A stretch of DNA of 64,000 nt from Bilabrum cf. latius (GCA_965178125.1 OZ237760.1:496001-560000), one strand, 5' to 3'. Positions 273-63,761 are shown, counted from the stretch's first letter. Notes: generated from the letters alone by a model not told the origin. Made by a program: numbers and translations.

Positions 273-1334
273 ATGCGATTCATTTGCTCGTATAAGCATT
301 CTGTTGCTTCGGTGGTATTCTGTGAGGCGCACTTGACGATGACGCCATTGTTGGCGATTATTGCAGTTGCTCGGTCCTGGCTGATGCATCGATTCGCCAA
401 TTCGTGACTTTGCACCGCAGCGGCCGCGGTTTCTATGGAACGAATAGCAAAGACAGTAACTCTTCGAATGTCTGCGGACAGATTGCAGATCTTCGCCGAC
501 AACAACGAGTGCAAAGCCTACGCAGAATTGAAAGTTGCAAGTGTATTCGACGATTGGCGGGTAGAAAGCCGGGCTGATAACGTAATTGGCCTCGGTATTC
601 CATCTAAAGCACTTGCAAGCGCCTGTAAATCAAGCTAGGATGCCTTCAAGACGACATTTAGGCTGACGAAGCGCGGCGGAGCCCCGTTCCTGTCATTTCA
701 AATGAGCAACGAGGACGAAACTCGCGTCTACACCGCTGATCTCCCGGTAGTGATTCTCGTTGGGAGCGCTGCTTAGGCATTAGAAGAACCGAGCGTTCCG
801 TCCGTGACTCTTCAGATGCAAGCCCCGAGTCCACGTGCCGCCCAAGCCGTGCTCGAGAGGATGAAGGCCCTCCGTGCCAAGCGGGTGCAAGTGGCTGCTG
901 CCACCGCTGGAGTCGTGTCCTTCAGCGTCAGGAGCGACCTAGTCGCGGTCCAGTCGTTTTTCTAGGACCTCGAGGAGGCAAGGGCGGGCTCAGGGGCCGG
1001 TTCGGCAGGAGGGGGCCACCTCACCGTGGAGGGCACCGCAGACCTGGGTGCCCTCTTGCTCGTGGCGGCGTCGGCGGCTGCAGCCCCGAAAGTGTCCGCG
1101 CACGTGCTGACAGTCTCTGCACCATCTACGCTTGGATGGCTCTGCGGCCTTGAGGGCGGCATGGGGTCTGCGGTCTTTTTGCTAGCTTTGGACGACGTTC
1201 GAGTGCAGAGGGTGAGTGCCGGGCCAGGGGGCGATGGCGAGGGCGATGGCGAGGGCCAGGAGGCGCAGGACGGCGGCGCGGGGTCGGAACTAGGGGCTGA
1301 GGCAGTGAAAGGTATGAGCGGCAAGGAGACGTGA
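273..1334 (+). CDS. HUS1: HUS1-like checkpoint clamp (9-1-1 complex) subunit; exons 273-321 and 421-1334; 3 in-frame TAG (636, 774, 963) read as Gln
   Basis: The spliced translation MRFICSYKHSVASVVFSAAVSMERIAKTVTLRMS...VFDDWRVESRADNVIGL...LASACKSS*DAFKTTFRLTKRGGAPFLSF...DLPV...LEEP...VLERMK matches the Hus1 pattern. Intron 322-420 (gtgagg...ccgcag) restores the frame. Ends in TGA. Confidence 0.85.
322..420 (+). other. Spliceosomal intron in HUS1 (99 bp)
   Basis: gtgagg...ccgcag; removal joins the ATG exon to the Hus1 frame. Confidence 0.8.
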
Positions 1335-1538
1335 GGCTGGCGCGTTGGCCCGCTCTGTCGCCGTATCGAGCCACGCCTGGCCTGTAAAGAGAGCTAGGTG
1401 AGATTGTTAGACCACCAGTTGGGCTTGTTGGACAAGCATGGGGTCCAGCCGCCCCGGTGGGGGAGATCTAGAATCCAGATCAGATCTGATCTGATCGCAC
1501 ATGCCTATGTGCTTCTCGTTGGCAACAATTAGAAGCAT

Positions 1539-3965
1539 TCATGTCTTGTCTTTGCCGCTGAGTCGTCGTCTCGAGGAGGACCTAGATCGAGAACCGGCAA
1601 TGCCCTTGCCTTTGGACGGCGGCTTGGCCCCTGGGCCTAGTGGGCTGGACGGTGGCTTGGCACCTGCATTCCGTGGGCTGGACGGCGGCTTAGCCCCTGC
1701 ACTCCGTGGGCTGGATGGCGGCTTTGCCCCTGGGCCTCGTGGGCTGGGCGGCGGCTTGGCCCCTGCACTCCGTGGGCTGGACGGCGGCTTTGCCCCTGGG
1801 CCTCGTGGGCTGGGCGGCGGCTTTGCCCCTGCACTCCGTGGGCTGGACGGCGGCTTGGCCCCTGCACTCCGTGGGCTGGACGGCGGCTTGGCCCCTGCAC
1901 TCCGTGGGCTGGACGGCGGCTTGGCCCCTGCACTCCGTGGGCTGGACGGCGGCTTGGCCCCTGCACTCCGTGGGCTGGACGGCGGCTTGGCCCCTGCACT
2001 CCGTGGGCTGGACGGCGGCTTGGCCCCTGCACTCCGTGGGCTGGACGGCGGCTTGGCCCCTGCACTCCGTGGGCTGGACGGCGGCTTGGCCCCTGGGCCT
2101 CGTGGGCTGGACGGCGGCTTGGCCCCTGCACTCCGTGGGCTGGACGGCGGCTTGGCCCCTGCACTCCGTGGGCTGGACGGCGGCTTGGCCCCTGCACTCC
2201 GTGGGCTGGACGGCGGCTTGGCCCCTGCACTCCGTGGGCTGGACGGCGGCTTGGCCCCTGCACTCCGTGGGCTGGACGGCGGCTTGGCCCCTGCACTCCG
2301 TGGGCTGGACGGCGGCTTTGCCCCTGGGCCTCGTGGGCTGGACGGCGGCTTGGCCCCTGCACTCCGTGGGCTGGACGCCGGCTTGGCCCCTGGGCCTCGT
2401 GGGCTGGACGGCGGCTTGGCCCCTGGGCCTCGTGGGCTGGACGCCGGCTTGGCCCCTGCACTCCGTGGGCTGGACGGCGGCTTTGCCCCTGGGCCTCGTG
2501 GGCTGGACGGCGGCTTGGCCCCTGCACTCCGTGGGCTGGACGCCGGCTTGGCCCCTGGGCCTCGTGGGCTGGACGGCGGCTTGGCCCCTGGGCCTCGTGG
2601 GCTGGACGCCGGCTTGGCCCCTGCACTCCGTGGGCTGGACGCCGGCTTGGCCCCTGGGCCTCGTGGGCTGGACGCCGGCTTGGCCCCTGCACTCCGTGGG
2701 CTGGACGGTGGCTTGGCACCTGCACTCCGTGGGCTGGACGGCGGCTTGGCACCTGCACTCCGTGGGCTGGACGGCGGCCCCATGGCTGAAGGTCGAGTGT
2801 TTTTGCCCGCCCTTGGGTGCTGCTTTGACCTGGTCTTGGATCCGCTGCGCTTGCGGTGGGGCGGCACACTGCCTGTGCTTGGCGGTGGGCTACTCGTCAG
2901 GACGGGCGGTATCGGGGCACTGGGTCTCTTGCTTGGTGCAGGCGCAGGTGCACCTGCAGGTTTGTGGGCTGGTGGTACTGCACCAGGCTATCCCGACGAT
3001 ACTTTGTCCTGCTTTTCTTTGCCTATGGACGGTCTGCCCTGCTTGCCACTGATGGATTGCTCCGATAGAGTTTGATTCCTTTCACTCGCTGCGCATCGTT
3101 CGATTGCCCTGTCCCCAGTTGGCAGCGGAAGCTTTGGCGGTGCCGTCGCAACGCCGTCCGCAGCTTCGTTTTCTATTGTATTCGATGGATTTCCTTCCAT
3201 ACTGCCAAGGCAGTCGGCCCCACCACCAAGCGCAAACTGCATGTACCGCTCAGCAAAGGACCGAGGCCTGCTCGCCCCATGCTCTCCATCCTTCCTTTCC
3301 TGCTAGGAGCGTCTCTGGGCAATATCTCGGTCCATGCGCTATCTCTCAATTGCCGAGAGGCTCATTTGCTGGGGTGTTGAGGTACTGGCTCCCAGCGCAC
3401 CGCTGGGTCTGGCCTTCTAGCCCTCAGCAGTCTATGGAGTTCGCAGCAGAGGCAAGTACCACGGTTCTGATCGCTTCAGGGGGGACTATCGCGGCGTGGC
3501 CCCAACACGACTAGCGGCCATAGCATCATGTGTATGCAATCGACTCCCAGTGGCATTTACGGACGCCCTGGACAGAGCCCGCTCGAGCTGTGTAGCACGC
3601 TCGACTGCCTCTGCCTCCCGCTGTAGAGCCTCCGCAAGAGATCGTTCCAGTCGCGCAACTACCGAGCGGAGGGCATCATTTTCGCTCTAAAGTAGTGAAA
3701 ACACCCTAGGTTTCTACCGGGAGGGTACGCCAGTAGCTACTAATGCGCGTGATGAGGTGCTTGCTGCTGTTGCTGGCTGCGCCCGCAAGTCTTCGATGGG
3801 TCGCTGGGAGGTGCCCCTCACAGAAACGACAAATCGCATCCTTTGCATTGCTCCGTTTTGGTTATCACCACTGCCATGGGACCGTGGGGGTGCCGAAGGC
3901 GATCGCATAGTAGATCCGGAGGCCCTCCTCGGTTTCAGGCGGACAGTTATGCTAGATTCTTCCAT
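1539..3965 (-). CDS. Hypothetical ~808-aa protein: short coiled coil plus C-terminal ~35x 11-aa basic Ser/Pro repeat (GAKPPSSPRSA / GAKPPSSPRGP)
   Basis: ORF fragments 3714-4073, 2988-3242 and 1539-2867 share one frame and are separated only by TAG (~8). ATG at 3965 (MEESSITVRLK), TGA at 1539-1541. Confidence 0.7.
1612..2778. repeat. 33-bp coding tandem repeat (minisatellite), ~35 copies
   Basis: Unit ctggacggcggcttggcccctgcactccgtggg, with variants cctgggcctcgt, ctggacgccggc and ggctttgcc, is directly visible. Confidence 0.97.
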
Positions 3966-4154
3966 CCTAGCTCTGCTGACGATGAAAAAAATCACGTAAT
4001 GACTCCAATTTTGGCTACAGAACTGACAGAAGAAGGTAGGAAGCCACAACAAGGCCGATATGGTTTGGCTCAACGACTACATCCGGTTTCCGGTTTCTCG
4101 GTCTGCGGCACGATGCCACCCATCCGTCTCTGGCGCCCAGACGCCATCGGTCCA

Positions 4155-6155
4155 TCAGCCCCGCATGTGACGAAGGTGCGGCTGGAACACCCGGCTCTCA
4201 AACCTGTCCGCTCTGGGGATTTTCACCGCTCGATCCCGCCTCGAGGTCGACAGCCCGGCGGCCCCATCCACCACCCCTGAGCCGCCCCCCCTGCCGGCAA
4301 TCCTGCTGTCTGCAGCGCCGCTCCCTGCCACCCCTCGGAAATATGCCCCCGGCCCTGGAGAGTGCCTGCCCCTCTGAGACTCAGCTGACGTGGGATCCGT
4401 CTGCCGCTGGGCCTTCGAGAAAGCAGCCCGTGGGCTCCTCGGCCTGTGCGAGAGCATCTGACCCCTGGCCAGCATCCCGTCGTTCTCCTCCAGCTGGTAG
4501 TGCCCCGGGCCAGGGAGATCCCTTGAAGCCAGTGGCGCGTCCAAGTCCTTGCCTCCGAAGGACAAAGAGGGCACGGCACGGTGCCTCGCGTGTCTCTCGC
4601 TCGGGGGAGGCAGCTTGCCGGGGCCGGGGGAAGCAGCTCCCAGCCCGGGTTTGTCCACGTCCACGCCCACTGCCATCTGCACCGGATGCACCATGTGCGC
4701 CTGCTGTTCCCTGGTGGCCCTGGCGAACGTTCGTCCGACGTAGTGCTGCCTCTTCCGCTAAGAGGGGAAGAACATGGCCTGCCGAGTCGCCTCCAGGCTG
4801 TACTTGTCCGGGGCCGGCTCCTCGCGGCGAAGCAGGGCGAACGTTCCTTCCCTCGCGTACTTGACCGAGGTGGCCGCGAAGCCCACCCGCCGGCCGCTCG
4901 CCCGCCCGCCCGCCCTCGATCGCCCCCTCATCCCTCCTGACACCGAGCCCAAGTTCCCCGCACGGCCGCTGGTCCCCTCCGCCCTCGTGCCTCGCGCCGA
5001 TCGGAGCTGCGCCCGCATGCTCCCCGGGGGATCGTCGTCAGCGGAACCGGCCGCGCGGCGCCGCGCATCTGCCCGGAGCTTGGTGGCCCTGTCCCTGAGC
5101 TCCGCCTCCACCTCGTCCTCGTCCACCACGGGGGGCAGAGGCAGGCCAGGCACCTTGGGCCCGCGGCGCCGGCGACTCGACCGGCCCTTCTCGTTCCCTC
5201 TCAGGTTCTCGTTCTCGCCGTCGGGCGACTTCCATTCGTCCCTCCAGGCCCCCCTGTGTTCCCCGACCGACGTGGCTGGCCTGCGGGGAGACGCACCCGC
5301 TCTGCTCCTCCCCCCCCTAGCCTGTTCCTCTTCCTCTTCTCTCACAGCCGCCGCCATGGCCCACGCCCGGCCCTCCCCCCCCTTGGCCGGCCTGGCCTGC
5401 CACAACGTGCCCCTCTTGAGCTTCCGCTGCAGGATAGCCGCCTCCACCCTCTCCCTTCTGCTCCTCCTCTCCTCCTCCCAGTGCTCGTGCTCCTGCCTCG
5501 CCCTCTCGGCTGCCTCTCTGGCCCGCTACCACTGAGCCTTGGGATCTGCAGCAGCGGTGCCGCCGCGGGAGCCCAGGGCCCTGCGTGCCATGGGGGCCCC
5601 CGCGTCCCCAAAGACGGGGCGCAAGGGGTCCCTCGGGTGGTGCGATCCCGGCCCTATGCCGGCCGCATCGCTGGCTGCCTCCGACTTGAGCCGTCCCATC
5701 TTGGGCGACCTGGATCGGAGGGTCGCGGCCGCCCGTGGCCTGCGGAACCCGGACAGGGCAGCTTCGTTGCCCACCCTGCCGGCCAAGTCGGCCGAGTACT
5801 CTGCTTCCTGCGTCTCAGTGGAGGGCATGTTGGCGTTGTGAGCCCTCGAGATGTAGGTCGATTGCATCGAGCCGAAGCGCGGTGAGCGGGTGAAGGATAC
5901 GGCGGGTGAGCTCGACCTGCCTGAAGTAACTTGCTAGCCAATGGACGATATAGGAAGAGCTGCTTGCGCGTCTCTCGGGTGTGCGAACCCGGCGCGGGTG
6001 GCCCTAGCTCGCTACCGAGGCGACAGCGTGCTCCAGTCGCCCGTGCCGTCGGCGCCTCTAGCGAGCGGTGGACGCGGGCGGCTGGCTGCATTTGCGCCAG
6101 ATTGTATGCTCATGGTACGCACAGTGGCATCCAGCAGGCTGCCCGTCGTATCCAT
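4155..6155 (-). CDS. SHIPPO-repeat (ODF3/STPG-like, PGPGxY) flagellar/microtubule-associated protein, ~666 aa
   Basis: One frame through 4 TAGs. Motifs SSIG*QVTSGRSSSPAVSF, IGPGSH, SPGPGK, LPGPGHY and SPGPGAY. ATG at 6155, TGA at 4155-4157. Confidence 0.75.
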
Positions 6156-6512: not shown

Positions 6513-7988
6513 ATGGCGAGTCGATAGAGGCGTGGAGCCGGACGAGGCGGCCCAGGGAGGGCGCCGCCGGCTGTTATGTCGGCTGGCGAGCTCGTTCGAA
6601 TCAGGCGCCTTGCTGGCGCCGGGGAGCTCATCACCCGGCCAGACGCCGATGCAATTGCACGTTAGGAAGACCGGCAGCGCCGACGAAAGGAATTGTCTCA
6701 GACCAAGGCCGGGCGCTGGCCGAACACGCTCCAGGCGCTCCGAGACAGGAAAGAGAAGGCTCGGGACGCCCGCCTGACAAAAGTAGAAATCGAAAAGCGT
6801 ATCTAGGACGAAATTGAGCGCGAACGAACGGCTCGAGAAAAGCTTGAGTAGCTGCGCGCGGCCAACCGCGCCCTCTTGGAAGAAACGGATCGCATGAAGC
6901 TCCTCCGCAGCCGGCGGATGATGTCGGACATCGAAGAAGTCAGGAAGCGACAGCTGGCCCAGAAGGCCCAGCTGAAGCAACTGAGAGATAGGTCCGAGCG
7001 GGAGCACCTGACGGCGCACCAGCGCGCCCTAGAGGACTACGACAAGCGGGGCGTCGAGGCCCAGGCGAAGGCCCAGACGAAGAGGGGGGAGGTGGCGAAG
7101 GAAATCAGGGCGCAGCTCGAGGCGAGCAAGCGCCGGGAACTGGATCGGCTGGAGGCCATCCGGCAGGACGGGCTCAGGATCCGCCGCGAGACCGAGGATG
7201 CCGCGGAGGAGGAGCGCCGCAAGGAGGAGGCGAGGCGGGAGCTGCTCCGGAAGAACAACATGGAGATGCTCAGGGCCAACCGGGAGCTGCAGGAGCACAA
7301 GAAGGAGCAGGCAAAGAAAGAGGCGGACGAGGACGCACGCATGGAGGCGTACGTGGCCAGCAAGCAGCGGGCGGCGCTCAAGCAGGCCGAGTTCATCCGG
7401 GGCAAGAAGGAGGCGGCCGACAGGCGGGCCAAGCAGATCCGGGAGAAGGTCGAGAAGGATTTCACGTCCTTTATGGCGGACGAGGGGGCAAGGGCCAGCA
7501 AGGCCGCCACTGAGAAGAGAGAGGAGGAGGACAAGCATGCAGCCGATCTGGAGGCGAGGCGACAGGCGGACTTGAGGGAGAGGCAGCGGTCCTGGCAGGC
7601 GCAGCTGGATCGCAAGGCGAGGGCGAAGAAGCAGGCGCTGGCGGACGACCGCGCCAACTTGAGCAAGTGGGGGGCCATCATATACGGCCTAGAGAAGGAG
7701 GAGCTGGAGCTGCAGCAGAAGAGGAGGGCGGAGGCCAAGGCGATCGCACAGGAGAACCTGAGGGCAGCCGCGAGAAAGGCCAGGACGGTGGACCGCAGGC
7801 GGGAGGCCGAGTACAAGGAGGACCAGGAGGCGACTGATACCCTGGTGCACGGAGACGATACCTTCAAGAGAGAGGCGGCCATGCTTGTGGAGGAGGAGAG
7901 GAGGAGGGGCCACCAGACGCTGGCGCTGGAGAGGTCCATCAAGAAGATCGAGAAGGAGCCGCTGCTTCCCGCGGGGCCGCTCATCTGA
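6513..7988 (+). CDS. CFAP210: Cilia/flagella-associated protein CFAP210/CCDC173-like (trichohyalin-plectin-homology coiled coil), ~491 aa
   Basis: ATG 6513; in-frame TAG at 6525, 6663, 6804 and 6849. RWPNTLQALR motif followed by ETDRMK and a long E/K/R-rich coiled coil. Ends in TGA. Confidence 0.7.
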
Positions 7989-8116
7989 TGCATGAGCGGA
8001 GGAGGGCCACCGTGGGCAGTATGTGCGTGGGTTGCGGGCGCCTTGTGATTTGTAGCCCGCAAATGAGAGCCAGAATGCTTGGCTAGCTCTGTACATGCCT
8101 CTTTTTGCCGTCATTA

Positions 8117-8920
8117 TTACTGCTTCTCAGGATCGGTGGCTGCCTATTGTAAGCCTCGATCGGACTAGGCCTGTGCCTGCTAGTAGGCCTGTGCCTGCAT
8201 GGCAGCTGCCCATACTGCAGCGTCCTCATCATCATCCTCTCCATCTTGCTCTTTGCCCGTGCCTTTCGGCGTCCCGTCTTCTCCTGTCGCGGCGCCATCG
8301 GTTGCTCGGCTGCTGCTCGCATTGCCCTCACCCCACCCTGCCGGTATGTTGGGATCCACGCGTCGGCCGTGGGCATCCAGGACCACGGCAGGAATCACAA
8401 CCGTGCTTCGCTGGACCTGATCGCTCGACTGTACGTCGCTGGAGCCAACCAAAGCCGCACCTGCCACCGATTCTGCCTGATCCTCACTGGCAGGTGGAGC
8501 AGGTTCCCCTGCGGCAAGTGCTACCTTGGGGACTATCACCTTCTTGCCGTCCTGCACAAGGACCTGCCCGCCACCAAGCGACTGACTCATTCTCTGCATT
8601 GACTCTGCGACCGCAGCTTCTCGGATCCTGCGCTGCTGCTGGACCTACCGGCCGACTGCAAACGCGCCGCAAGTCGTCCCTGCGATGGCGCCACCAGCAA
8701 GCATCAGACTCCTTCGAGCGGGCGCTCTGCGGTTCAAGTACGGCCAAATATTAGACATTGTCTTTCCTCCTAGAGCAAAAGCAAGTGCGCAGCCAAGCAT
8801 GCCACCCGCGGCCGCACCTGCAACCACCCGAATCCTATCATTTTCCCTTCCTTTCGATACTTCTCGTTGCTGATTAGCGGCCACTATCTCAGGTAGCGAT
8901 ATTTTACGCTCCTACTGCAT
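8117..8920 (-). CDS. Hypothetical membrane protein with two Gly-rich hydrophobic segments, ~267 aa; ends TAA-TAA-TGA
   Basis: M-Q-*-ERKISLPEIVAANQQ...VVAGAAAGGMLGCALAFALGG...LMLAGGAIAGTTCGAFAVGR*VQQQRR...QAQAY*QAQA*SDRGLQ*AATDPEKQ, then a triple stop at 8111-8119. Confidence 0.65.
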
Positions 8921-9063
8921 TCCAGGGTGCACTTCTAGCTATTGTACGTTGAGTAGTTGCCTCCAAAATGTCCTCGGATGGTTCCCACTCGTCATGGCCC
9001 CGGGAGTGGCTTGACGCGACGAGACTCTTGCGCTGCCACGACAAGAAACAGTGCACCCCGAAC

Positions 9064-12000
9064 ATGTCATCGGGTGCGTCGCGATCCATACTGGGCCGAC
9101 TGTACGATGCTGTTGCAGGCGGTAGCAATGAGGTCAGGCGGGCCCGGGCATTGCAAGAAGCACTGGGGCGGCGAAAGCGCGATGCCGGCTCAGACGCCTC
9201 TCGGTACGTTAAAGATGCAAAATTACACGAAAAGGATGCCAATAAAGTTGCTAGGGACGGATTCGAGAGGCTAACTTTGCTGCACTCGTGGTGCCTGTGG
9301 AGCATCGTCCCCATGTTCCGAAAACAGTCCATCCTCGGATACAAACGCGAGAAGCTTCGCTTTGCATTGAATGGCAGAGCGGCTGCTATCTTGAGGCGCC
9401 ACGAAGCACAGCTAGATGCCGCCGTTGGGGAGCTGAAAGAGAGGCTGTCGTCTGGAAGGGTTGACGCAGATTGGCTCGACGCACTGGAAACCAAGTGCAC
9501 CACAAACACCTCCTTGTCGGATCTCATCAAGCAGGATCAGAAAGTGCATCGAATCCGAGTTTCTTTGCAGCGAACGCACTAGCAACTGGCTCGCGTGGAT
9601 GCAGAGGTACGAGCTTCGCGAGACTTGCTCAGGCTAGAAAGCGCCGGCGCCCGCCGTGCCGCCTTGCTGGACGCCGTGCTCGGCGAATCCAAGGAGCGGG
9701 CTCTGTAGAGAGCGGAGGACGCCACGATCGACGCGATGGAACGGGCGTACCGCGAGGACTAGTTCAACCGGGCGAAGCGCCTGCACGAGGCGAGGATGAA
9801 GCGGAGAGAGAAGGCGGCGGGAAGAGCCGCGCGGGGCGGCGACGACGCGGGAGGGGTCGTGCGAGGGAGCAGTTACACTGCAGCGGTATCGACCAAGGAG
9901 GGCGATGGCGCCGTGAATAAGGAGGAGGATGGGGAGGAGGAGGAGGAGGATCCTGTCTTGCAGCTGCCTAGCCCTCCACCCCCATTTCTGCTCCGAGTCC
10001 TCAGGATGGTGGTGCGGGCGGGGGCTGCCTCTACCGATCACTGCGTCCCGGTGCCTGGCCTAGACGGTGAGCTGCAGAGTGCGGACGCAACGGCGGACGC
10101 GGCTGCGCGGGAGGCTGCAGCGGCGATCGAGGGTGCGATGGGGGGTGCGGGCGGGCGCGGGTCGCTGGACACTGGGTCGTTCGGGGCTGGATTGGGTGGG
10201 GAGGGGGCGGATGGGCGGCACGGGGGTCGAACGAGACGAATGGTGCTACTGGAGGAGGAGCTGGACGATGGGAGCGATGGCGAGGAGGAGAAGCAGGGGA
10301 AAAGGCAGCAGTCCACCTTGCCTGGTGGCAGCGCCGTCACCATGCAAACGCCTGCTTCCGTCCGAGGCGAAGATCCCGAGGATGCAAACACCGGAGGAGC
10401 ACCCGAACCGCTCTCCCTCCCCCCCACCGCCCCTCCAAGGCAGCAGCAGGAGCAGCAGGCTGGAACGGCGGAGACAGCAGCCCCACGGGCCCGCTGCCCC
10501 TCCGCCTCGGGCCCGCAGACTCGTGTGAGGGCTGGCTCAGTCGCCTCTGCGGAGTCGGGCAGGTCCAAGGAAACTGAGGCATCCAAAGAGGCGCCTGACT
10601 CCAAAGAGGGGCAGGATGATGCTGCAATAGCGCATGATCCCGCTGGGATCACCCCCGCCGGCCCCGGATCTGCGAGGCCCCCCATGGCCTCGAAGCCGAG
10701 GTCCAGGAGGAGGGTGGGCCGGCCCATGCCCCTGCGAGCCAGCCGCCGATCCTCCTACCACGTGGGCTCAGGGGCCGGCGCGGGGACTGGGCTAGTGGGG
10801 GAGGTGGGGGCTGGGGCACAGCTTGGGCTGGGCGTGACTCCTGTGGGCGGATCTGTCCGGCGTGTGATGTCCATGGCGGCGGTTGGCGGGTCTCAGCGGG
10901 CGCTGCTTGGGGCGGGAGCGCTTGTGGGGGCCGGCGATGCAAGCGGAGATGGGCGGGGTAGCTTTAACATGAAGCAAGGTTCGTCGGGGGCTTGGTAGAT
11001 TGTTCCCGGCATGGAAGGGCGGGTAGGGGGCTCCGTGTCGGCGGGCGTGCATGACATCGGGGTGCTGGAGGAGGCCAGGTCTCTGAGGGTGTCTATGGGG
11101 GCGCTGCCTCGGGCCAGGGCGTTCCTGGCCGGCATGCGTGAGCTGGCTGCTCTGTTTGGGTATCCGTTTGCGAGCGTGGACGGGTGGTGGGTGAGGGAGA
11201 GGGAGCGGATGGAGAGGGCCTCTCTCTTCCGTCGGCTGTGCGGAGACTCTAGGCTGCGAGAGGGGAGGGTGCTCACTCGCTGGACAGAGCAGGCTCTCGG
11301 CAGCAATCGGACGTGCCTCTTCCATGACGACCAGCAGCTGGCAGTGCTGGGCCCCAGGCTCAGCGCGGATGGTAGGTAGGGCACCAAGCAGAAGGAGCGG
11401 GCCCACGGCAGCCAGTCGCACAGGGGGGGGCACGCCAGGAGTGCCTCGCAGAAGCTGCCGCGAGCGGCCGCGCTGCAGAAGCAGGACGACGCAAGCAGGG
11501 GCGGACAAGGGGACAGCCCGTACGGAGGCTCCACGCCCGGCACGCCGGACGCCTCCCCGGGCCTGACGCCGGGCTTGGCAGCGCGAGGCACCAGCTCTGC
11601 CTCGAGCGAGCAGTCGGTCGCGTCGCGCTCGCCCCGTAGGGTCCGGTCCGAGGCAGCTCTGGGTGGCAGCGGGCGGCATCGCGGGGGCTTGCCGCCCGCT
11701 TCCGCATCTTCATCCAGAGCCAAGGTGGTGGGTGCCCACAGCCGACACTAGGCCCTTCCGCCTGGTGCACTGCCACCCTTCGACACGTCTGACTTGGCAG
11801 TGGCTGCCAGCAAGGTGCAGGTGTCGACCCACGACGAAGCGTGGTGGAAGGAGCTGCACGCCAGGGCCATGGAGGCCACGAAGGAGGCCAGGCGGAAGCG
11901 CTCGGGTGGCGCGGCGGCGGGCGGACAGAAAGCTAGCGAAGACGCAGACCAGGACGGGGACAGCTCACAGGAGCAGGCGGCCAAAGTGCCGACACCTCCT

Positions 12001-24013: not shown

Positions 24014-24128
24014 ACTATTCACTGCGTTAATTGTCTTCTCAGCAAGGGGTCATGCCTCGGAAGTACCAATGAAATTGAGCTGAGTGGGTTGCTTGTGTTT
24101 GTGCACTGCACGCATCTGCCAACCATTC

Positions 24129-26051: not shown

Positions 26052-26300
26052 TGCTAATTTCTGCTCTGACGCCGATAGTAACTGCGGAGCAGCGAGCATT
26101 CCGGAACTCGAAATGAACGTTCGTTGAACCTAGATGGAAGAATTCAGAATTGCCGCTAAATCTACCCCTGCTGGATCATATCCAGCCTTAGGTCGACTGC
26201 ATTCATATATTGTTACTATCTAGATTGATTGCTTCGACAAGTATCCTACGTGCACGTGGATATTGACCAGTAGTCCTGTCTCTGAGACCTGGCCAATCCA

Positions 26301-31776: not shown

Positions 31777-31849
31777 AACTCTGTGGAACCGGAAGCCGCC
31801 AGTCGATTCGGCAATCCGGTTCATCTCTCAACAGCGCGTCCACGTTAAC

Positions 31850-50938: not shown

Positions 50939-51513
50939 CTGGCTAGCCTGTGTGCAAATTAAATAACTTCTGCACTTTGTTGCGCAGGCCACGACACAGT
51001 AGCTTTCGATTTGCTGGTAGCGATTCGTACGGCCACTTTTGTGCTGCCGTTTCATTTCTTCTTCTTCATAATTTGCATGCAAGAAGCCTGCACAGCAAGC
51101 AAGCGTCGTATGGTGCGTTGCCGCTCGATGTAGTGGACGACTAGCCTGGATCTACAGAATACTATTCTTCGTGAGGTCTCTCGAAAACCCCATGATTTGC
51201 CTAACATTCGATGAATTCGTCTGTGCTGAGGGATACAGCCTCCAATCCTGACGAACACGTCAGCGGTGGGAAAGGGGGTTAGAAGTACTTAACATAGAAT
51301 AGATTGACCGATGGCTTGGACTGATTAGTCTGCCAATCTCAATCCTGCCCGAAATATGAGGTCCACCCGCTTCAACCGAGGGACACGGTCCTGGCCCTCC
51401 CGTCTGCGTGCCAGTGGATCCGCTCGAACGTGAGGCATGTTCCAGTCCACGAGATGACAAAAATCATTTTGCAATACTACAACGATATTAGACGATTCCA
51501 TGCATTGAAACGT

Positions 51514-53628: not shown

Positions 53629-53864
53629 GCACTTTTCCGGGGTACGGTTAGGTTCTTCTCGCTGCTGCAATGTCTCTAGGCCATGTGCAAGCAGCAAATC
53701 CAGTCCTAGATTCTGACAGACAAATCCATTGGATGCAGCAGTTAACACCGTCAGCGTTGCCCACGTCAGGTGTAGCCATACTTAAGAAGATCCCAACCAA
53801 CATCCGGGATTAACATTTATAGCAAACACAACAACACTCCACAAAGTCCGTGGATCCTGGATTA

Positions 53865-56800
53865 TCACTAGTTTCCCAATGCTGGGTCCCAAGAAGTGTG
53901 AAGCACGATGCCTGGTCGAAGAGAGACAACCGTGCGGTCCCGTGCCCCAACTTGTCCCCAAGAAGAACCACGAGCAGTGGGCCTCCCGCGTTCCCCACCA
54001 ACAGCATAATCCTAACGGTACAGTACCGTCGGCTGTCTGCGCCCACTGACTGCTTCGTGAGAGTCCACCTACCGAGATTGCCTTGCATGCTGCGGGCCTG
54101 CCTAAGCGGAATCCACTCTCGCCGCGTGCCTCCCGGCTTGCGAGTTCGTGGTGCGACGCTTCCCCTGACCCTATATCAAAATCTCGCGGCGCTCTGCCTC
54201 TCGCCTCTTCCTTGCGCGGGACCTTGCCCTTGCAACCGCCCGGTCTCTAGCAGCTTCCCGTTTTCTGAGCTCAGCAACTCTGGCTGCTCGGGGATCGATT
54301 TGTACCTAGCGTCGAGGCCGGCCGTGAGCCGCACCACCAACCGTCCTACCAACATCGCCTCCCTCGTGGCGCGCCGAACCATGCAACGGTGCCCGGGCTC
54401 CCGCTGGTCTCGTTCTCCCTCGAGCAGCAGCCCTCGACCTAGCACGATGGGGGCGAGCCTCAGCACCGCCAAGCCCTCTACCCTTGGGTGCGCCTTCCCT
54501 GGGCTATGGACGTCTTAGCCGGTCCTACCGGCCTGCACCTTTGCCAGCAGGAGGACTAGGCAGCCCCCACGCGTCAATCTCGTCCTCAGCTGCGTGACGT
54601 CGCTGCACGGCATGCGATACTCTGGTGTCTGCTTGCCCACCGTTGCCAGCGTGTGCCCCTCTGTGCTGCATCGAATGGCCACCGGCTTGCCCGGACGTGA
54701 TGCTGCGGTTTGACCCTCGCCGTGCTGCTCTCTCCGTCTGCGTTGAACCATCAGCTCGTGAAGCTGCGTGTCCACCGGCGTGTCGTGATGGGCCGGCGCG
54801 ATCGGGTGAGCCGGGACCAAGCGGCGTGAGTCCTATGGATGCGTCGGAGAGAGCTGCAGTATTCCACGAGAGCCGACGAGGCCGGGCACCTACATCCAAA
54901 ACATCATTACTGCTGCCAACGGCAACGCCGCGGGGTTCCGTGCGACCGGCAAGTCCACCGTCAGTCTCATCTTCCTGGTACTCTCTCCTGGACGGGTTGG
55001 CGTACATGATCTTGTCCAACGGCATGTCGGTTTGCGTCCCGGCGTCGAAACCCGAGCTTACCGCCGAGACAGCCGTGCCAGAACCCGGCTCGTGCAGATG
55101 CGGTAATGGCAGGGCCCTGGGGTCGGGTGCTTTCGTAGCCATAGCTTGCTTGCCACTGTCTTGGCTAGGTAGAGGAGCAGGCTCGCCCCGAAGAACCATC
55201 GCTTTGGAATGCCCCTTCAATGGGTAAGGCGAAGTGATATTTCCACCGGTGGCACCGCTTTGTAAGTTACCGCTGCTCCTGTCACCCTCTCGTTGTCGAG
55301 ATAGTGTGAGCTGAACTCGAAGCTGGCTGGGAGCTGCCATACTTGCATTCCTTGCGCGTGGCTGGTCCGCTTGCGACTGCTTTGTGCCTGTTGGATGCCG
55401 GTTGGATTTGTACATTCTTCCTACTTCTATGGTCTGATCGGCAGGTCTGGCTCGACGTTGCAAGTCGGATTCATCCTCTTCAACTTCTTCTGGGATGGCA
55501 GGGCTGATCGGAAGGCTCGCATCACGATACGACATGCGCTTGGCAGGGCTCGTAAGCGACTCGTCGTCCGAGTCCAGCTCAAGCACACGCTTCGGCACTT
55601 TTACACCTGCCGCTGCAGCGACCGCACCCGCCGTAGAATTCAGCAAATAGCGGGATTCTGACGAAGTACCACGAACGCGGTCTTGCGCATGTCCTGAGCG
55701 CGCGGGCTGCTACAAGTCCGATCCTGACAAGGCACGGCCTGTTCTGTTCCCGACGCTGAATTTCGCAGAGACAGACACTCGCTCTATGGGCGCAGCGGAC
55801 GTCCCAGGTTTGCGGCCGTTTGCGACAGCTTCAAAGGACTGGCTATCTGAGCTGCCTTCAGTTGCTCGTCGCTTCTGCGGCGGGGTCATGGAAGCCTCGA
55901 GTGCAGTAGCGACTGCATCCAGCAGCTCGGCTTGGTGCGCCTCTCGCTTCTCCCTAGCCTCTCGCAGCTGCAACAGGATGTCGCCCTTCCTCGCATCCTC
56001 GGCGCGAGCACCGATGCCACCGCCAGTGCCATCGTCCTGGAAAGCCGCGAGATATGGCATGGCTCGTGCGTGCGAGGATATAGAAGCACTTGGGCTAGCG
56101 CTGCTGTGGCTGCTCCCGTAGTGAGAGTCGCTGCCGGCACCTGCAGCCTTGTATGCAGGGCCGTGGGCGAGTCTGTGCAGCATCTAACTGACAGCAATGG
56201 AGTCCTGCTAGTGAGATGCCGCCATGTCTTGCACTGCTTTCCAGGCCCGTTTGGATGCTGGAGAGGTGAAGTCCGCCTGAATCGGTGGCTACGCTAGGTT
56301 TTCTGCAGCATTCGCGTCGTATTGTGGCTTGATGCTACTGACCCTGCGTGCTTTCATCGACTTCTGGTCATTGCTTGGCTGACATTCTACGTCTCGTTGG
56401 CGCTGCGTGCTGGGCTCACTTGCCACGGCCCGTCGGGGTGGGGGCTCATGAAGGGTGGGAGCAAGGTGCTAACTCTTGGCTCCTTCGTCGCTGATTGCTG
56501 ACTTCTACTCTGCTTCACTCGGCCGACTTGTCGCGACGCTTTCTGCCAGCTGCTGCTCGTCGTCCGAGTCCACCAATTCGATAACGTCGTCATCATCATC
56601 GCTGTCTGAGGGAATATCAGTGTCATCCTCATCATCACTTTTGGACGCTGTAGCAGCACCACCCCGACGATCACCACTGATAGAAGTCCGGCTTCTACTC
56701 TGAGCAAGCTCTCGAGCGGCTTGCATCGCCCGCTTGGCAGCCATTCTGTCGACATTCTCCTCACCGCGTTCCTGCTGCTGCGGACCATCGTGCTCGACTG

Positions 56801-59800
56801 GCAGCTCGGCAGCACTCTCACCGAATTGCACCATGTCGGTCCCAAGGCTGTGCAAGCTGCTATCAAGAGAAGGTCCATTGGACACAGCTGGCATCGCAGG
56901 GGCGGGGGACGACTGCTTCACGCCACCGTTCGAGTCCGATAGAAGCCCCGCGGCGCGCTGGCTTTCCAGCAGCGCCTGTTGAGCAGCGAGCATGGCAGTC
57001 CTGGCACGCAACACGTCGGACTCGATGGAATCTTCGGGCAGCGAATCGGACTCACTAGCATCTCGGCGAGCATTGCCTGCAGTTAGCCCCTCAGGTGCGT
57101 CGTCGGACAACGGGCCCTCCGGCTGCCCAGGCGGCGGCGACAGCACTGTGGGTGTGGCCTCCAGCGCACTCGTAGCCGGTCGTGTCTTTTGTCCGCTTGG
57201 CACGGGTGCGCTTCGAAGGGGGCTGGCCAGGGGATTTGTCGCAGACGTGTCGCCGGCATAGAGCCTCCCCGACATGGCGGCATCTAGCTGGGCAATGGCA
57301 AGCGAAGCAGCAGCTGCCGCGTGTCGAGCTGAATCGGCCAACCCATGACCAGAGGACGCAAGGGAGTCGACAGCATCGGCGAGCTCTGAATCTATCGCTT
57401 TGTCATCGCTGCTTGCATCCTCAGTCTTGCCACTGATTTGTGCCGACCCATCTTCCCGGGATGCAGTATCAGGTGCACTCGCGCTTACTGAAATCGCTTG
57501 GAAGCCGCTGCTAGGGGCCTTGCCTGTGGAAATCGCAGCAGGTTTGACGCCTGAAACTCCAGCGTCCTGTCGGGGCGTAGCTTTCATGCCGTTCGAAACC
57601 GTTTGGACGTCGCCGGACGTTTGACCTTGCTGCTCGCCAGCCACGATTTGCTGTGCTCTGCGGAGCACATCGCTGATGCGCGGAGGAGACGCCAAGAAAG
57701 ACAGGCCAGTGAGGCCATCCGGCTCCTCCTCTTCTGTGGCGTCCAAGCTCCGCCTCTGTGCCATTTCCTGCCTCGCTGGGCTCGGAGGATTCGGGGGGCG
57801 CCTGTCCGAATCTGCCCGTCGGTCGTCCGGTTTCAGCAGCGGCAGGGGCAGCCGGTCTGCCGGCCGTGGTTTGTCCATGCTAGCGTTGTTGCTGGTAAGT
57901 CCACCAGGCTGCAGTAGCGACGGCTGCACCTGTCGCGAAAGGCCGATGTCTCGACTCCGCAGGACGCCGGCTGGTGGCGGCGTGGCGGGCAGCGGACGGA
58001 GGTGGCCCCCTGGCGTCGTTAGCCGGCGGTTCTCAGCGTGGGCACCCTTCAATTCCGTTGATGCCTAGTCAATGCGAAGTGGAGTGCTACCCGCGTCTTG
58101 AAGACGACCGGCCGCGTCGGGGTTCATTAGCAAAACGCCTGCGTCGGGCATCGGCGTCTTGGGTCGCAGTGACCTGTCTGGAGTCGGGCGGCGGCTCGAG
58201 CCTGCTGATCGAGTGCGACCTGCATCTCGCGAGTGTCCGGGGCTGGCACCTCTTCGGTTCTTACGCGGCGGAGCGCCGGACGCATGGCCTCGAGTCGGTG
58301 GTCCGCCCGGTTCTGTCGCCATCCGCCACTCTCCATCGCCAGCATTAGACTCGGTACACAGGCACGTTGCCATGACAAGCTTGCCTAGGGCGAGCAGGCG
58401 CTGGGTCACCGTGAAGGCCCTCGGGGAGTGGACGGCCCCTGCCGTTGCCATGGCGATAGCACCAGCGTGCCCGCTCGTTGCTGCCTAATGCATGCACTAG
58501 AGCGACTGCATCGACAACCTGTCGTACTGCGCCAGCAGGTCAAAGGCGCAAGGCAACGCCCGCGCAAGCAGAGTCGCTGGCTTGGGTGCCGGTGAGTCAG
58601 CAGGTTGAGAAGAGGCTGTTGATGTGGCATCAGCTTCGGCTGGTTCATCGGGTGCACTCTCTTTGTCTTGGCTACCATCTGTAGGTATACTTGCGACAAC
58701 CGCTGCAGCCTGTCCGGAGCCCGAGGCAGAGTGCTGCATCCGCCGCGCGTCACACACTTCCTCTGCCCAGCACGAGGCCATGTTGCCGGCGACACTCTCC
58801 GTCGACACAGGAGCAAGTAGAGTCTACGCTTTTCCGGATCCCTCTTTCGCCGAAGCCAGCCGAGCTCTAGCTGGCCTTCGAAGGACGTCAAGCTCTGCCT
58901 GCACCGCGGCGCGCCCTTGCTGCTGGCACCAGTCCCCGAAGGCTGGCAGGCGGGTGGAGCACGATGACCTCACGGCCTGGTGGTATGGCTATCGGCACCA
59001 ACGGTGTGACGAGTGCAATTTTGCTGCTCGTCCGTCGCTGGGACGCTCGTCACGCTGGCTAGCTGCGTCCCTGACAGCTGCAACCCAAGCCCGCATCAGC
59101 AGCAGGTCCTCCGTCCCAACCCGGGCGCGAAGCATGGCCGCTTTGAAGGCCACGGGAGAGACTGCAGCAAGTCGGCCCATGGCACTGGCTGCCAACGCGC
59201 TGGACCAGCCGTGCCTGTCACGGGGAAGGACCGAAGTGCCGGGCCTCGATTCAGTGCCGGCGACCGCCTGCGTGTCTGCCCCAGCCTGCGTGGCCCAGTG
59301 CCAGGCCAGCAGCCAGCCCCAAGTCCACGGTGGTGATTTATGGTTCAGGCTAGATGTTAGATTCTGGGCGGCGGTACTGGGGCCAGGGCCGACATCTCCG
59401 CCAGCTTGGCCTAATGTGTAGTCGTTCGGCGGTGCGGCACTGTCGTCAAGCAGGCACTATGTCGCTATTGAGCCGTGGGATTCGGCTTGATGCGCTATCT
59501 TTGGACGGCGAGAGCTAGGAAGTAGCATACACGTGCATGCAAACACAAAACATTCTGCGAAACAAAGGCAAGAGGGGTTGCTGGCAGGTGCTTGCAAGAC
59601 CGAGTGAAGTGCAAGCACGGGATACAAGATCCTCACCGTCAGGTCCAAGGAGTCCCACGCCGTGCTTATCTAAACTATAAAACAACTAATCTGCCGCGTC
59701 CATCCAAGATGCATCTACGCCTGAGTTCATCATGATGATGCTGTTTCGCTCGAAGCTGATGCAAGCCAAGGCATGGCAGACCGCTTTTCGATCCATTCCT

Positions 59801-60326: not shown

Positions 60327-62175
60327 TTATCTCTTCCGTGAACCCTTGGCCGCGCCCGCCCACTGCCTTGAAAACCCGTACGCCACCACCCCCAGCGATG
60401 CCACCACGGCCACGCCCCCGAGGATGCCTCGGAACAGCTCCCCGCGCTTCCTATCAACCGCCTCTGCCCTCTCCCTCGCCCTGTCCAAATCGATCCCCGC
60501 CTCAAAGGCCTCCACCTCAACCACATCTCGCGCCGCAGACTCCTCCGCGAACGCATTTCTGTCGGCGTGCTGGGCCGTTGCGACCGCTCTCTCGGCCGGA
60601 TTCAGCATGAAGTCAGCTGCCCTGGCGTAGTGGCGCAGCAATGCAGCGTAATCAGGCTCCAGATCCGTGGAACCGGGCCCGCCAAATCCACTGCCTGTTC
60701 CAGTGGCAGTGGCAGTGCCGGCCAGAGCCAGCTCATACCCCCCGCCCGATGGGCTCCCAGCTTGGGGGGGCGGCGTTCCAGCCGAGGCGCCCCCGTTTGA
60801 TTGTTCCCTGGATTGTTCCCTGGAACAAGCCGCCTTGAGCTGCGCAAGAGTAGGTCCATGGGCAAGGTGCAGCCTGCTGTGAAGGACTGCAAACATGCTG
60901 CGACCGTTTGAATCCGTAGCGCCCGAGGCACCCGATGGTGTTGTTCCTTTATCCCCGCCTGCTTCAAACACCCAGGCCGGTAGGGGCCGTGCAATGCACC
61001 CCAGCACACTGCCTCGCTTTGCTTCTGCCTCCATCAGCTCCTACAGGGCCTCCTGCCCAAGCTCGCTGCCGCTCCCTGCGACGCTGGCACCTGGCACCGA
61101 ACGAGCCGAACCAGCCCCCTCGGCAGCAAGGCCCAGCCCCTCTCTCAAACGCTCTATCTCGTGATCATGCTGCAATCGCTTCTACTTTCCTGCAGAGGAG
61201 ACGTGGTATCCAGCCTGATCTGTCAGGTAGGGCCTGCCCACTGGGTGGAAAGGGGAGGGGCGCTTGGGCGACGATCCGCCAGCTGCACCAGCTGCCTCTT
61301 CCCCCGGCTCTGATTTCGTGACGGATCTCGGGCTGAAGACGGGCAGCACCCCGCCCCGTTCTGCGATTGCGATAGACCTCGTGGCAGCGGCCAGTACCGA
61401 GGGGGGCCCCAGCCTGCTGCGCTGCTGGCACGCTGCTTGCACGAGCCAGCGCATGGGCAGCGTGTGCCTCACTGCGTGAAAGTGGCCGAACAGGAGAGCA
61501 TCCAGGGTGCTGGGGGAGGACCCAAAGGACCATGCCCCCTCTGTGTCGCCAAGCAGCGCAGCAAGCGCTCTGTATGCGACGAGCGTGCGCCTCCTCGCGA
61601 CGCGCTCGCTGGTCCAGCCCCTGGACCTGAGTGCCGCGAGCACGCGCTGCCTTAGTGCGCTTGCCGTGAGTTGGGCTGGAAGCCAGCCCATTTGTCTTCG
61701 GAGGCATGGCAGAGTGTGCTTGCCGTACTCTTCCTCGTCTGCCCACGCTCCGAAGAGCTGCGCATCTCGCAAGTCGTCGAGCACGAGGGAGCTGTACGCC
61801 GTGCAGTTCGACCTATCTCTGTGTCCAAGCTTGGCATCCACGACATTGTGCACCTCATCGCGCACAAGCTCAACGACCGCTCGAGCAGCAGATTCACCAC
61901 TGAACGTTTCGCGGCTCGAACCATCAAAGACAACCGGCAGAGCACCAGAGCCCGACAGCCTCGGCATCGTCACATTATCCACTGTGAAAGCGATCCCTCC
62001 AAACCGAAGCAGAGCCTGCAAATGGAATTCATACAATCCACAGGGAACCAAACAGTGTGCGAAGCCATCAAAATTCTCCAAGAAACGAAAGCAAAACTCC
62101 GTGTGCAGTACCAACATGGCTCACCTCGATAGTATGCTCCTCAAAAAACTGCTAGACATGCACAGCTTCCTACAT
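60327..62175 (-). CDS. Metaxin-like mitochondrial outer-membrane protein (GST-like fold, C-terminal tail anchor); probable exons 62125-62175 and 60327-62015; TAA stop
   Basis: EALLRFGG...SGSGALPVV, AYSSLVLDDLRDAQLFGAW and AYRALAALLGD...FGSSPSTLDALLFGH. C-terminal transmembrane segment GILGGVAVVASLGVVAYGF plus basic tail KGSRKR-TAA. TAG at 61182 read through. Exon 1 model is tentative. Confidence 0.8.
62016..62124 (-). other. Probable spliceosomal intron in metaxin gene (109 bp)
   Basis: GAG|gtgagc...tttgcag|GCT; phase 0. Confidence 0.6.
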
Positions 62176-62351
62176 TCTCAATGAACACCTAATAAGAACT
62201 GGAAATTTACCGCTGAAAGCAGCTATGTCGCTCAAAATGCAGGAATTTTTGTCTGGCCGAAATGCGCGGCGCCGATCGCTGCCTTCTGGTTCCGTAATGC
62301 TGAGCGACAGCAAGCGCGTCGACGGGTCAGCATCTGCGCAGTGAAGCTGCG

Positions 62352-63761
62352 ATGGACGGCGTAGCGACTCTTGAATTGAGCTCTCGAAAACGATCTGATC
62401 TTCGGTTTTCCGTCCAGGAACTCGAAGCAAAGGAGGATGCAGGGTATGTTGACGCAGAGAGCGGTATCAGGCGCAGCGACGAGCCTTGCAAGCCAGAGGG
62501 GCAGGCGCTGCGCAAGAGATCTGGGTGCATCCGCAAGAGTGTTTCGGCTCGGCTGGTTCACGTCGACAAGACCCCGCCTTGGTACAAGGCACGAGACCAC
62601 GTCCTATCTGGGTATCGCATCGGACATAGCCCCCGCGACTGCGTGGTTGGGCTACTTGAGTGGCATGGGGAGACAGTCAACATCTGGACGCATGTAGTAG
62701 CACTGCCAATTACTCTGATTGCGATCATGGACCTGCTGCAGCACCCTTTGGCAGAACAGGTACACCCGTGGGTGAAGGTGGGTGGAGTTTTGTGCTGCTC
62801 CACTGCCGTGAATTTGTTGGCATGGAGCATATTGGCCCACGTGTTCCACTGCCTTTCCCCGTGGCATCAAAACTAGCTTTGGTGTATCGATATTGTGAGC
62901 ATTAAGTTCGTCTGGCTGGCACGGGCAGTCATGGAAATGTACTTTGTACTATTCCACTGGGAGCTCGTGGTGTTGCCAGCTATTCTTCTTGCCGTCGCAT
63001 TTGCCTTTCTGATGCCACTGGCTGTTAACTTTGGCGAGGTGACAAAGAAGCGGCCAAGGCACGAGCTGTTTGCAGTACTGGCTCTGCTCGGGCAACTGCC
63101 CACCATCCTCCACGGCACACTCGCATTCAGGCCAAGGCTCGTAGCAGCTGCCTGTTCCTGCTTGCTCTGGGCTAGCAAAGCAATGGGCGCGATCAGTAGT
63201 CCAGAACACGCCATGGATCGGTAGCTCTCGCCCTGGCTGAGCCCCAGTGCGGCGAATGGGGCCGGGGAGCAGCCCGCAGGGCTTGTAGGGGAAACAGGGG
63301 CTGGGACGGCACACGAAACAAAAAGTACGGTGGTGCACGGTAGGAGTGGAGGTGGTGCATTGGGTGGCGGCACCGCCACGGAAGCCGGCGCAGGACTTTC
63401 TGAGCCGGTGGGCAGCGAGAGCATTGTGTGGCATGTGTACGGCTGGTTCACAGAGCCCACGATGGGGAGGGAGGACTGGCAGCATGTGGCGTAGGTGCTG
63501 GGCCCAGCGGCTGTAGACGGCGTGCAGGGGGTGCACTCCAGGACAGCCGTGCAGTACGCGCTGATTAGCACCGCGATTGGGTTCCTTGCCATGGTGATTT
63601 TTGCCAGCAGAGTGCCCGAGCGATGGTACCCCGGCAGGTTTGACCTGGTGGGGCAGAGTCACAACATCTGGCACGTGCTTGGGGCGCTTAGCCCGCTCGT
63701 GTGGATGTGGTACGTGGCACCGGCTTGCCTGGAGTGGAGGTACGGTGGGGGCGCGGCGTGA
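62352..63761 (+). CDS. PAQR / adiponectin-receptor / hemolysin-III family membrane protein, ~469 aa
   Basis: HVLSGYR, WHGETVNIWTH, SILAHVFHCLS, ID and SRVPERWYPGRFDLVGQSHNIWH. Three in-frame TAGs (62874, 63222, 63492). TGA end. Confidence 0.9.

Follow-up and report, generated by a model that had tools for sequence, protein, structure and literature searches.

Probable reassignment of UAG to glutamine, with UGA and UAA kept as stops, in a GC-rich, intron-poor flagellated protist

We analyzed one 64-kb stretch of DNA from Bilabrum cf. latius (GCA_965178125.1 OZ237760.1:496001-560000), here called the window, drawing its open reading frames (ORFs) with TAG taken as a sense codon. With high confidence, the window comes from the nuclear genome of a flagellated protist, rich in GC and poor in introns, in which UAG encodes glutamine and genes end at UGA, the main terminator, or UAA. 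This codon table is NCBI translation table 15. A first-pass annotation made from the sequence alone had proposed that UAG is glutamine while UAA and UGA stay stops, and tests of ORF structure, homolog columns, relatives, likelihood, and stop counts upheld that proposal. Reassignments of UAA and UAG are nearly always coupled; UAG alone is known to have changed in only a handful of ciliates and in one representative each of the fornicates, rhizarians, and green algae (PMC11687900). UAG-only codes bear on how the single eukaryotic release factor drops UAG yet reads UAA and UGA.

In-frame TAG codons and the residue they specify

Each of the 18 ORF models contained at least one in-frame TAG, giving 148 in 19,233 codons. 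This is 7.7 per 1,000 codons and about 15% of all glutamine codons. Removing three weak models left about 110 TAGs in confident ones. The first-pass annotation had reported 18 genes, all with in-frame TAG and with more than 100 TAGs between them. The TAG counts hold, but the minus-strand models at 49871-51193 and 36086-49450 belong as exons to a single channel gene, and therefore the window has 17 genes. Likewise, its tally of 16 gene ends at TGA and 2 at TAA was reproduced in the 18 models and becomes 15 TGA and 2 TAA once the channel models are merged.

Under the standard code, the longest stop-to-stop frame was 526 codons and the longest ATG-started ORF was 524 residues. Reading through TAG extended the longest frame to 4,482 codons, while reading through TAA left it at 526 and reading through TGA gave 932. 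With TAG as a residue, ORFs of 4,454, 2,270, 1,949, 1,706, 1,393, and 1,107 residues appeared. The absence of internal TAA and TGA is a product of how these ORFs were defined, so we used other tests. In the coding frame of the models, TAG, TAA, and TGA occurred 148, 0, and 0 times, compared with 319/2, 132/2, and 665/2 times per off-frame. If TAA:TAG followed the CAA:CAG ratio (186:624), 44 in-frame TAAs would be expected, and the probability of seeing none is about 7e-20. The earlier claim that internal TAA and TGA are missing thus stands for the exons, and frequent internal TAA, which had been named as a sign of a different code, was not seen in the models of the window.

We also counted the stops that lie between two long open frames. 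For frames of at least 150 codons, the separating triplet was TAG in 10 cases, TGA in 1, and TAA in 0; for frames of at least 200 codons, it was TAG in 4 and neither of the others in any. The test was noisy at 100 codons (TAG 38, TGA 23, TAA 1) because GC-rich DNA has long chance frames, and the separation was clean from 150 codons up. Pfam domains spanned TAGs in six proteins: Hus1, the prenyltransferase alpha subunit, two helicases, the voltage-gated channel, and the PAQR protein. Homology ran on through TAG codons without a change of frame, as the first-pass annotation had stated for conserved domains.

In the alignments used to identify the residue, TAG was masked as X to avoid a pull towards Q. 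Codon 262 of the prenyltransferase gene (motif ...EPDD-TAG-SAW...) stood opposite Q in 44 of 45 homologs and opposite Q in rat RabGGTA. Codon 669 of the Upf1-like helicase (...HAI-TAG-GAEF..., in a conserved ...QG.E motif) did so in 144 of 145 homologs, and Upf1 has Q there too. Human HUS1 has Q at the position of Hus1 codon 68 (636-638), and the channel carries the run QQQQQ-TAG-TAG, with its TAGs at 46658-46663. Five columns had 20 or more homologs. Their summed log-likelihood was highest for Q (-15.6), 10.4 units ahead of E (-26.0), the next residue; three of these columns are variable and hold residues other than Q. The peptide TAVFTEPDDQSAWIYHR, quoted in the first-pass annotation, was found in the prenyltransferase gene, where its Q is the TAG at 24933-24935.

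UAG in mature mRNA and in relatives

Ten public runs hold part of the window, none of them listed as RNA, and runs from four studies were compared over 24000-43999. The evidence on mRNA consists of assembled contigs, not raw reads. One contig each from runs X5 and X7 (two studies) skips exactly 25758-25849, a 92-nt stretch that reads GTATGT...CGCAG on the strand of the prenyltransferase gene; an X1 contig is unspliced there. The spliced contigs showed no differences from the window over 24651-25757 and 25850-25961, including both exon 2 TAGs and the TAG that ends exon 1. CAG in mRNA at TAG sites had been set as a check on the proposal, and these contigs carry TAG. Since spliced contigs retain the TAGs, assembly error and UAG-to-CAG editing are both argued against. 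Among the zero-mismatch contigs listed over 24000-43999, those of X5 covered 32 of the 43 model TAGs and those of X1 covered all 43. Only two variant sites (41605 C>A and 41680 C>T) were listed in these 20 kb across the four runs.

Contigs of all four runs break at short repeats (24574-24650 and 41514-41680), with many loose ends at 41514-41549, and both variant sites lie in the latter region. Two other joints, 29807-31111 and 41548-43499, were disregarded as splices; each has only 20-22 letters on one side and is located at repeats.

An exhaustive search with the helicase returned three short proteins (P0046, P0049, and P0053) that are 89-92% identical to it and all lie on one 6,590-nt contig. 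A search with a TAG-rich stretch of the channel, covering 16 TAGs, returned two fragments (P0329 and P0330) of 93-96% identity, both on one 30,883-nt contig and together giving two TAGs and two ends. The fragments at 89-96% identity resemble the output of standard-code ORF calling on a sister organism. They have Q at all four window TAGs that they cover, namely, helicase codons 669 and 865 and channel codons 1265 (45656-45658) and 1518 (44897-44899). When two more distant fragments were included, five of seven C-terminal ends fell opposite a window Q or TAG codon, which together make up 5.0% of residues. The window Q codons at relatives' fragment ends (n = 2) are CAG, one transition from TAG. 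Thus, with Q at covered TAGs and fragment ends at CAG or TAG, TAG swaps freely with CAG/CAA between close relatives, like synonymous codons.

The pattern extends to a more distant relative. P0095, which is 42% identical, stops exactly opposite the TAG at helicase codon 865 of the window. Its DNA is a metagenome contig (L001, Ga0222651_1030611; 1,199 nt, 54% GC) that is fully open only when eight TAGs are read through and that has no TAA or TGA in 399 codons. Its alignment with the helicase of the window (43% identity, 412 residues, E = 1e-95) continues through the TAGs, and the contig has TAG at both codon 865 and codon 669, the near-invariant glutamine. The metagenome scan for relatives yielded this single 1.2-kb locus. 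A 43%-identical sequence with the same pattern means that the reassignment is common to a clade and older than this species and is not the quirk of a single strain. Besides this species, at least two organisms carry the code: the close relative, at 89-96% identity, and the distant one, at about 43% identity in the same helicase.

In public protein collections, the genes of these relatives (P0046/P0049/P0053, P0329/P0330, and P0047/P0095) are present as short fragments cut at TAG. Because standard-code gene callers cut there, proteins of this clade are systematically truncated or missing in such collections.

Termination and competing readings

After the channel merge, 15 of 17 genes end at TGA and 2 at TAA. 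The alignment of the PAQR protein with ADIPOR1 reaches residue 465 of 469, so its TGA lies at the normal C terminus of the family. For the metaxin gene, the log-odds of a codon-usage model trained on the Pfam-supported genes was +0.308 over the final 100 codons and fell to -0.125 in the 59 open codons beyond its TAA. The orf317 model ends in tandem terminators, TAA-TAA-TGA (8117-8119, 8114-8116, and 8111-8113; minus strand), and orf1949 ends TAG-TGA-TAA (53868-53870, 53865-53867, and 53862-53864; minus strand). A TAG just before the working stop, as in orf1949, may be what remains of an earlier TAG terminator.

Several observations weigh against a uniform UAG-to-glutamine code with UAA and UGA as stops. 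Some TAG columns are not Q: helicase codon 270 aligned with Y 54, F 38, L 16, I 14, V 9, and T 2 (n = 142), channel codon 1903 with E 57 and D 55 (n = 120), Hus1 codons 114 and 177 with K in the human protein, and PAQR codon 175 with T in the ADIPOR1 alignment. Two fragments end elsewhere, P0330 opposite a window Ser codon and P0047 opposite Trp. Run X5 was rated "RNA? (probably DNA)", and the RNA nature of X5 and X7 rests on one spliced joint and uneven depth. TAA ends just two genes, one of them of known family. Finally, UAG may be an occasional terminator in some genes, our sample being 17 genes without mapped 3' ends.

This last point leads to the alternative that survives best, although we give it little credence. 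In a context-dependent code, UAG would mostly be glutamine and would also act as a terminator now and then, a dual role that stop codons have in Condylostoma, karyorelict ciliates, and Blastocrithidia (UAA). Our ORFs read through TAG by construction, and TAG terminators would be invisible to all of our tests; orf1949, with its TAG-TGA-TAA end, fits such a code, and in 6 of the 18 models a TAG lies no more than 45 codons from the end. However, uniform TAG density alone predicts about five such tails. TAGs numbered 19, 19, 22, 14, 11, 13, 11, 9, 13, and 17 over successive gene deciles, and the last 50 codons of the 18 models held 10 where 6.9 were expected, so there is no depletion at 3' ends. 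GC content at third codon positions was 0.621 in the tails after the last TAG, 0.666 in gene bodies, and 0.530 in 3' flanks, which puts the tails closer to the gene bodies, and in no gene of known family examined by alignment did homology end at a TAG.

We consider it very improbable that UAG is a sense codon for another residue (Glu, Tyr, Leu, Lys, or Ser). Codes with UAG as leucine or serine are known (PMC11687900), and the columns listed above point to other residues, aromatic or aliphatic at helicase codon 270, E or D at channel codon 1903, and K at the two Hus1 codons. By sequence comparison, the non-Gln TAG columns are variable columns or reflect distant homologs. Against another residue stand the two near-invariant columns (Q in 44/45 and 144/145), the likelihood lead of 10.4 units, the glutamines at four of four sites in close relatives, the polyglutamine run that finishes in two TAGs, and the breaks of relatives' ORFs opposite window CAG codons.

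Still less room is left for table 6, in which UAA would also be glutamine and TAA merely rare through high GC. TAA is indeed the rarest stop triplet in this GC-rich window (395 compared with 1,009 TAG), and the frame past the metaxin TAA stays open for 59 codons. That extension scores as noncoding, though, and base composition does not account for 0 in-frame TAAs against 44 expected and 66 per off-frame. No long frame gained from TAA readthrough, TAA separated no pair of frames of 150 codons or more where TAG separated 10, orf317 ends TAA-TAA-TGA, and contig L001 has eight TAGs and no TAA in 399 codons. Taken together, these data leave the table 6 reading close to refuted.

The idea that no code change occurred, with the TAGs owed to assembly or sequencing error, pseudogenes, U-to-C RNA editing, or many unrecognized introns, draws only on the general caution that one 64-kb window is the basis, no positive evidence for it having been found, and is scarcely credible given the same sequence in runs of four studies with two variant sites in 20 kb, TAGs kept in spliced contigs, a ratio of 148 TAGs to no TAA or TGA that is unlike pseudogene decay, unbroken same-frame homology across TAGs, and an independent metagenome contig with the same pattern.

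Known codes, lineage, and gene content

We return to UAG as glutamine with UGA and UAA as stops. By extension from Panek et al. 2017 (PMC5304391), such a code would use a tRNA-Gln with anticodon CUA, one anticodon change from tRNA-Gln(CUG), which would pair with UAG and not UAA. It would also use an eRF1 that reads UAA and UGA but is blind to UAG, perhaps owing to an alteration at or close to the GTS motif (PMC5304391); the Iotanema eRF1 has T32G in that motif (PMC5304391). ARAGORN found no tRNA genes in the window, and Pfam scans found no eRF1 among its encoded proteins.

A UAG-only change to glutamine has been reported for Iotanema spirale, Protocruzia tuzeti, Hartmannula sinica, and Trochilia petrani (PMC11687900). 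The phyllopharyngean ciliates H. sinica and T. petrani and P. tuzeti share the codon table of the window, and UAG is spread along genes like other glutamine codons there and here (PMC11687900). In the table 15 ciliates, however, 93.5-100% of mapped C termini are at UAA (PMC11687900), whereas here TGA ends 15 of 17 genes and TAA 2 of 17. The window also differs from these ciliates in its GC content of 56-65%, a contig of at least 64 kb, 17 genes, and GT..AG introns of 92-164 nt. Ciliate genomes are generally AT-rich.

I. spirale, a fornicate (Metamonada) with the first non-ciliate UAG=Gln code, is likewise a flagellate that keeps UAA as a stop (PMC5304391, PMC9161772), and the same mechanism, tRNA-Gln(CUA) with an altered eRF1, was predicted for it (PMC5304391). 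UAA is its dominant stop, as in the UAG=Leu rhizarian, in contrast to TGA here (PMC5304391). Its nearest relative, Euthynema, has the standard code (PMC9161772), whereas the code described here extends to a 43%-identical relative. The window encodes a metaxin/Tom37-type mitochondrial protein, and its prenyltransferase grouped with stramenopile and not metamonad sequences (45 homologs), two further differences from Iotanema. Iotanema is represented by a transcriptome only, and its tRNA has not been found because no genome exists (PMC5304391); here, genomic assemblies are present in public runs.

Other codes are further removed. In UAR=Gln codes, in which both UAA and UAG are glutamine (table 6; many ciliates, Hexamita, Streblomastix, ulvophytes, and Amoeboaphelidium), UAG has the meaning proposed here (PMC11687900), whereas in the window TAA stays outside reading frames and ends genes. 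UAG is Leu in the rhizarian exLh and in TARA ciliate metagenome-assembled genomes and Ser in the green alga Scotinosphaera; in these codes UAG is likewise decoupled from UAA but specifies a residue other than the Gln of our window (PMC11687900).

The lineage is unplaced, and sequence comparisons lean towards a stramenopile affinity. The first-pass annotation had called the organism bicosoecid/Cafeteria-like, which our data did not bear out: the GC content of the window is 56-65%, compared with about 70% in Cafeteria roenbergensis, for which no nuclear code change is reported. There were no Cafeteria proteins among the 45 prenyltransferase homologs (best identities, 38-55%). The nearest relatives of the prenyltransferase were an MMETSP transcript, with 55% identity across 20% of the query, and cluster P0002, which includes an EukProt MAST-4 member. 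Cluster look-ups for 10 further proteins yielded no useful taxon name. In a quick single-gene tree, the query sat on a long branch that falls not among the green algae but in an unresolved cluster together with Aureococcus, Phaeothamnion, and the MAST-4 sequences. A search with the channel domain returned animal Cav channels almost exclusively. The window contained no rRNA or marker genes and gave no Rfam matches.

The first-pass annotation had also suggested an independent origin not previously described. The lineage may be new, but the code itself is already NCBI table 15, so novelty was somewhat overstated. We found no report of this code beyond ciliates and Iotanema in the full-text literature searched, in which subscription journals and supplements were incompletely covered, and a published description is possible. 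The change of UAG to glutamine seen here is probably of independent origin. We hold, at slightly better than even odds, a broader proposal: that UAG became glutamine with UAA retained, independently, in an unrecognized clade of GC-rich, intron-poor flagellates, possibly heterotrophic stramenopiles, comprising at least three lineages (about 95% to about 43% protein identity) present in public runs and a metagenome. This would be the first UAG-only code with UGA as the main terminator and the first outside ciliates with genomic assemblies. If so, the assemblies would show directly the UAG-reading tRNA and the UAG-blind eRF1; a GC-rich genome in long contigs, runs of several studies, and relatives at two depths of divergence make a search for the tRNA-Gln(CUA) and for the eRF1 changes practicable. 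The two divergence depths would allow the age of the code change to be bracketed, and a TGA-preferring genome offers a testbed for the idea that low UAG usage precedes reassignment.

The families identified by Pfam and PDB matches are ordinary eukaryotic genes and include SHIPPO-repeat and TPH-domain proteins, both of flagellar type. The largest gene encodes a four-domain voltage-gated cation channel (36086-51193, minus strand; 4,935 codons when joined, 40 TAGs, TGA end; Pfam Ion_trans, E = 5e-113 and E = 1.9e-19; PDB Cav/Nav matches). Its two ORF models share a frame and are separated by a gap of 111 codons bounded by TGAs. The gap resolves into GT..AG introns at 49797-49960 (164 nt) and 49491-49626 (136 nt), both predicted from sequence and homology, flanking a 170-nt exon in another frame. 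The joined coding sequence has no TAA or TGA, and Cav domain I homology spans both predicted junctions. TGA as a sense codon in this gene was rejected, as both TGAs lie inside the predicted introns, whose removal restores frame and homology. At more than double the size of animal Cav/Nav channels (about 1,500-2,500 residues), the protein owes its length to very long interdomain linkers of low complexity, and the predicted introns sit in the domain I pore region. The GC minimum of the window (0.555 at 48001-52000, compared with 0.59-0.65 elsewhere) falls where the channel gene has its introns and 5' end and where the divergent orf724 starts, a membrane-protein-like model with no known family (51454-53628, plus strand; 4 TAGs, TGA end; coding log-odds, 0.103).

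Exon 2 of the Rab geranylgeranyltransferase alpha subunit gene lies at 24129-25757 (minus strand; Pfam PPTA, E = 5.3e-37; TGA end), with TAGs at 24933-24935 (codon 262) and 24681-24683 (codon 346). It is preceded by the 92-nt GT..AG spliceosomal intron at 25758-25849 that the X5 and X7 contigs skip and by the part of exon 1 covered by RNA-type contigs (25850-25961), whose last codon, 25850-25852, is TAG. The prenyltransferase ORF (region 25718-25961) aligned from rat residue 54 onward, which places the true first exon upstream of the ORF start, and the spliced contigs confirm this. The Hus1 checkpoint-clamp exon (435-1334, plus strand; 3 TAGs, TGA end; Pfam Hus1, E = 2.4e-32) aligned with human HUS1 across all three TAGs. 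Because the alignment begins at human residue 25, about 22 N-terminal residues are missing and the true first exon is presumably upstream.

The Upf1-like superfamily 1 (SF1) helicase gene occupies 27595-31776 (plus strand; Pfam AAA_11/AAA_12) and contains 10 TAGs, including codons 669 (29599-29601) and 865 (30187-30189), before a TGA end. The weak model orf451 (26301-27656, plus strand; 8 TAGs; coding log-odds, -0.001) overlaps its start by 62 nt in another frame and is probably 5' exon(s) or unrecognized intron structure of the helicase gene, or 5' noncoding sequence. An X7 contig has a loose end at 27565, near this overlap. A second helicase gene (14290-21102, plus strand; 15 TAGs, TGA end; Pfam UvrD_C, AAA_19, UvrD-helicase, HIRAN, and F-box-like) has TAG codons 123 and 1203 within its HIRAN and UvrD matches. 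It unites an N-terminal HIRAN domain with F-box-like and UvrD-type helicase domains in a single protein of 2,270 residues. We take the pairing of F-box and UvrD to resemble the architecture of FBH1, with HIRAN as an addition.

Four further genes have known families. The SHIPPO-repeat protein gene is at 4155-6155 (minus strand; 4 TAGs, TGA end; Pfam SHIPPO-rpt, E = 3e-4; coding log-odds, 0.132), and that of the TPH-domain coiled-coil protein of ciliary type is at 6513-7988 (plus strand; 4 TAGs, TGA end; Pfam TPH, E = 3.4e-11; leave-one-out coding log-odds, 0.245). The metaxin/Tom37-like mitochondrial outer-membrane protein gene spans 60327-62117 (minus strand; 2 TAGs; Pfam Tom37, GST_N_4, and GST_C_6) and ends in TAA at 60327-60329. 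The gene for the PAQR (adiponectin-receptor/HlyIII family) membrane protein lies at 62352-63761 (plus strand; 3 TAGs, TGA end; Pfam HlyIII, E = 7e-25).

The codon-usage model gave weak scores for orf451, parts of orf1949, and a repeat protein at 1539-4082, and it supported the remaining unnamed models. Those with no known family are, besides orf724, orf317 (8111-9070, minus strand; 6 TAGs), which is supported on its strand by a log-odds of 0.075 compared with -0.164 for the opposite-strand ORF; orf1706 (8968-14088, plus strand; 10 TAGs, TGA end; 0.151); orf525 (22436-24013, minus strand; 1 TAG, TGA end; 0.169); and orf1107 (32585-35908, minus strand; 6 TAGs, TGA end; 0.168). The low-complexity, weakly supported orf1949 lies at 53862-59714 (minus strand; 21 TAGs; 0.048). 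The weak model of a Pro/Ser-rich repeat protein (1539-4082, minus strand; coding log-odds, -0.005) has nine TAGs, all within the N-terminal 365 codons. The strand opposite carries a TAG-free ORF of 524 residues, and codon usage left the coding strand undecided. Within this model, a 33-nt tandem repeat at 1613-2778 (35.3 copies, 91% matches by TRF) encodes, on the minus strand, an 11-residue Pro/Ser-rich unit.

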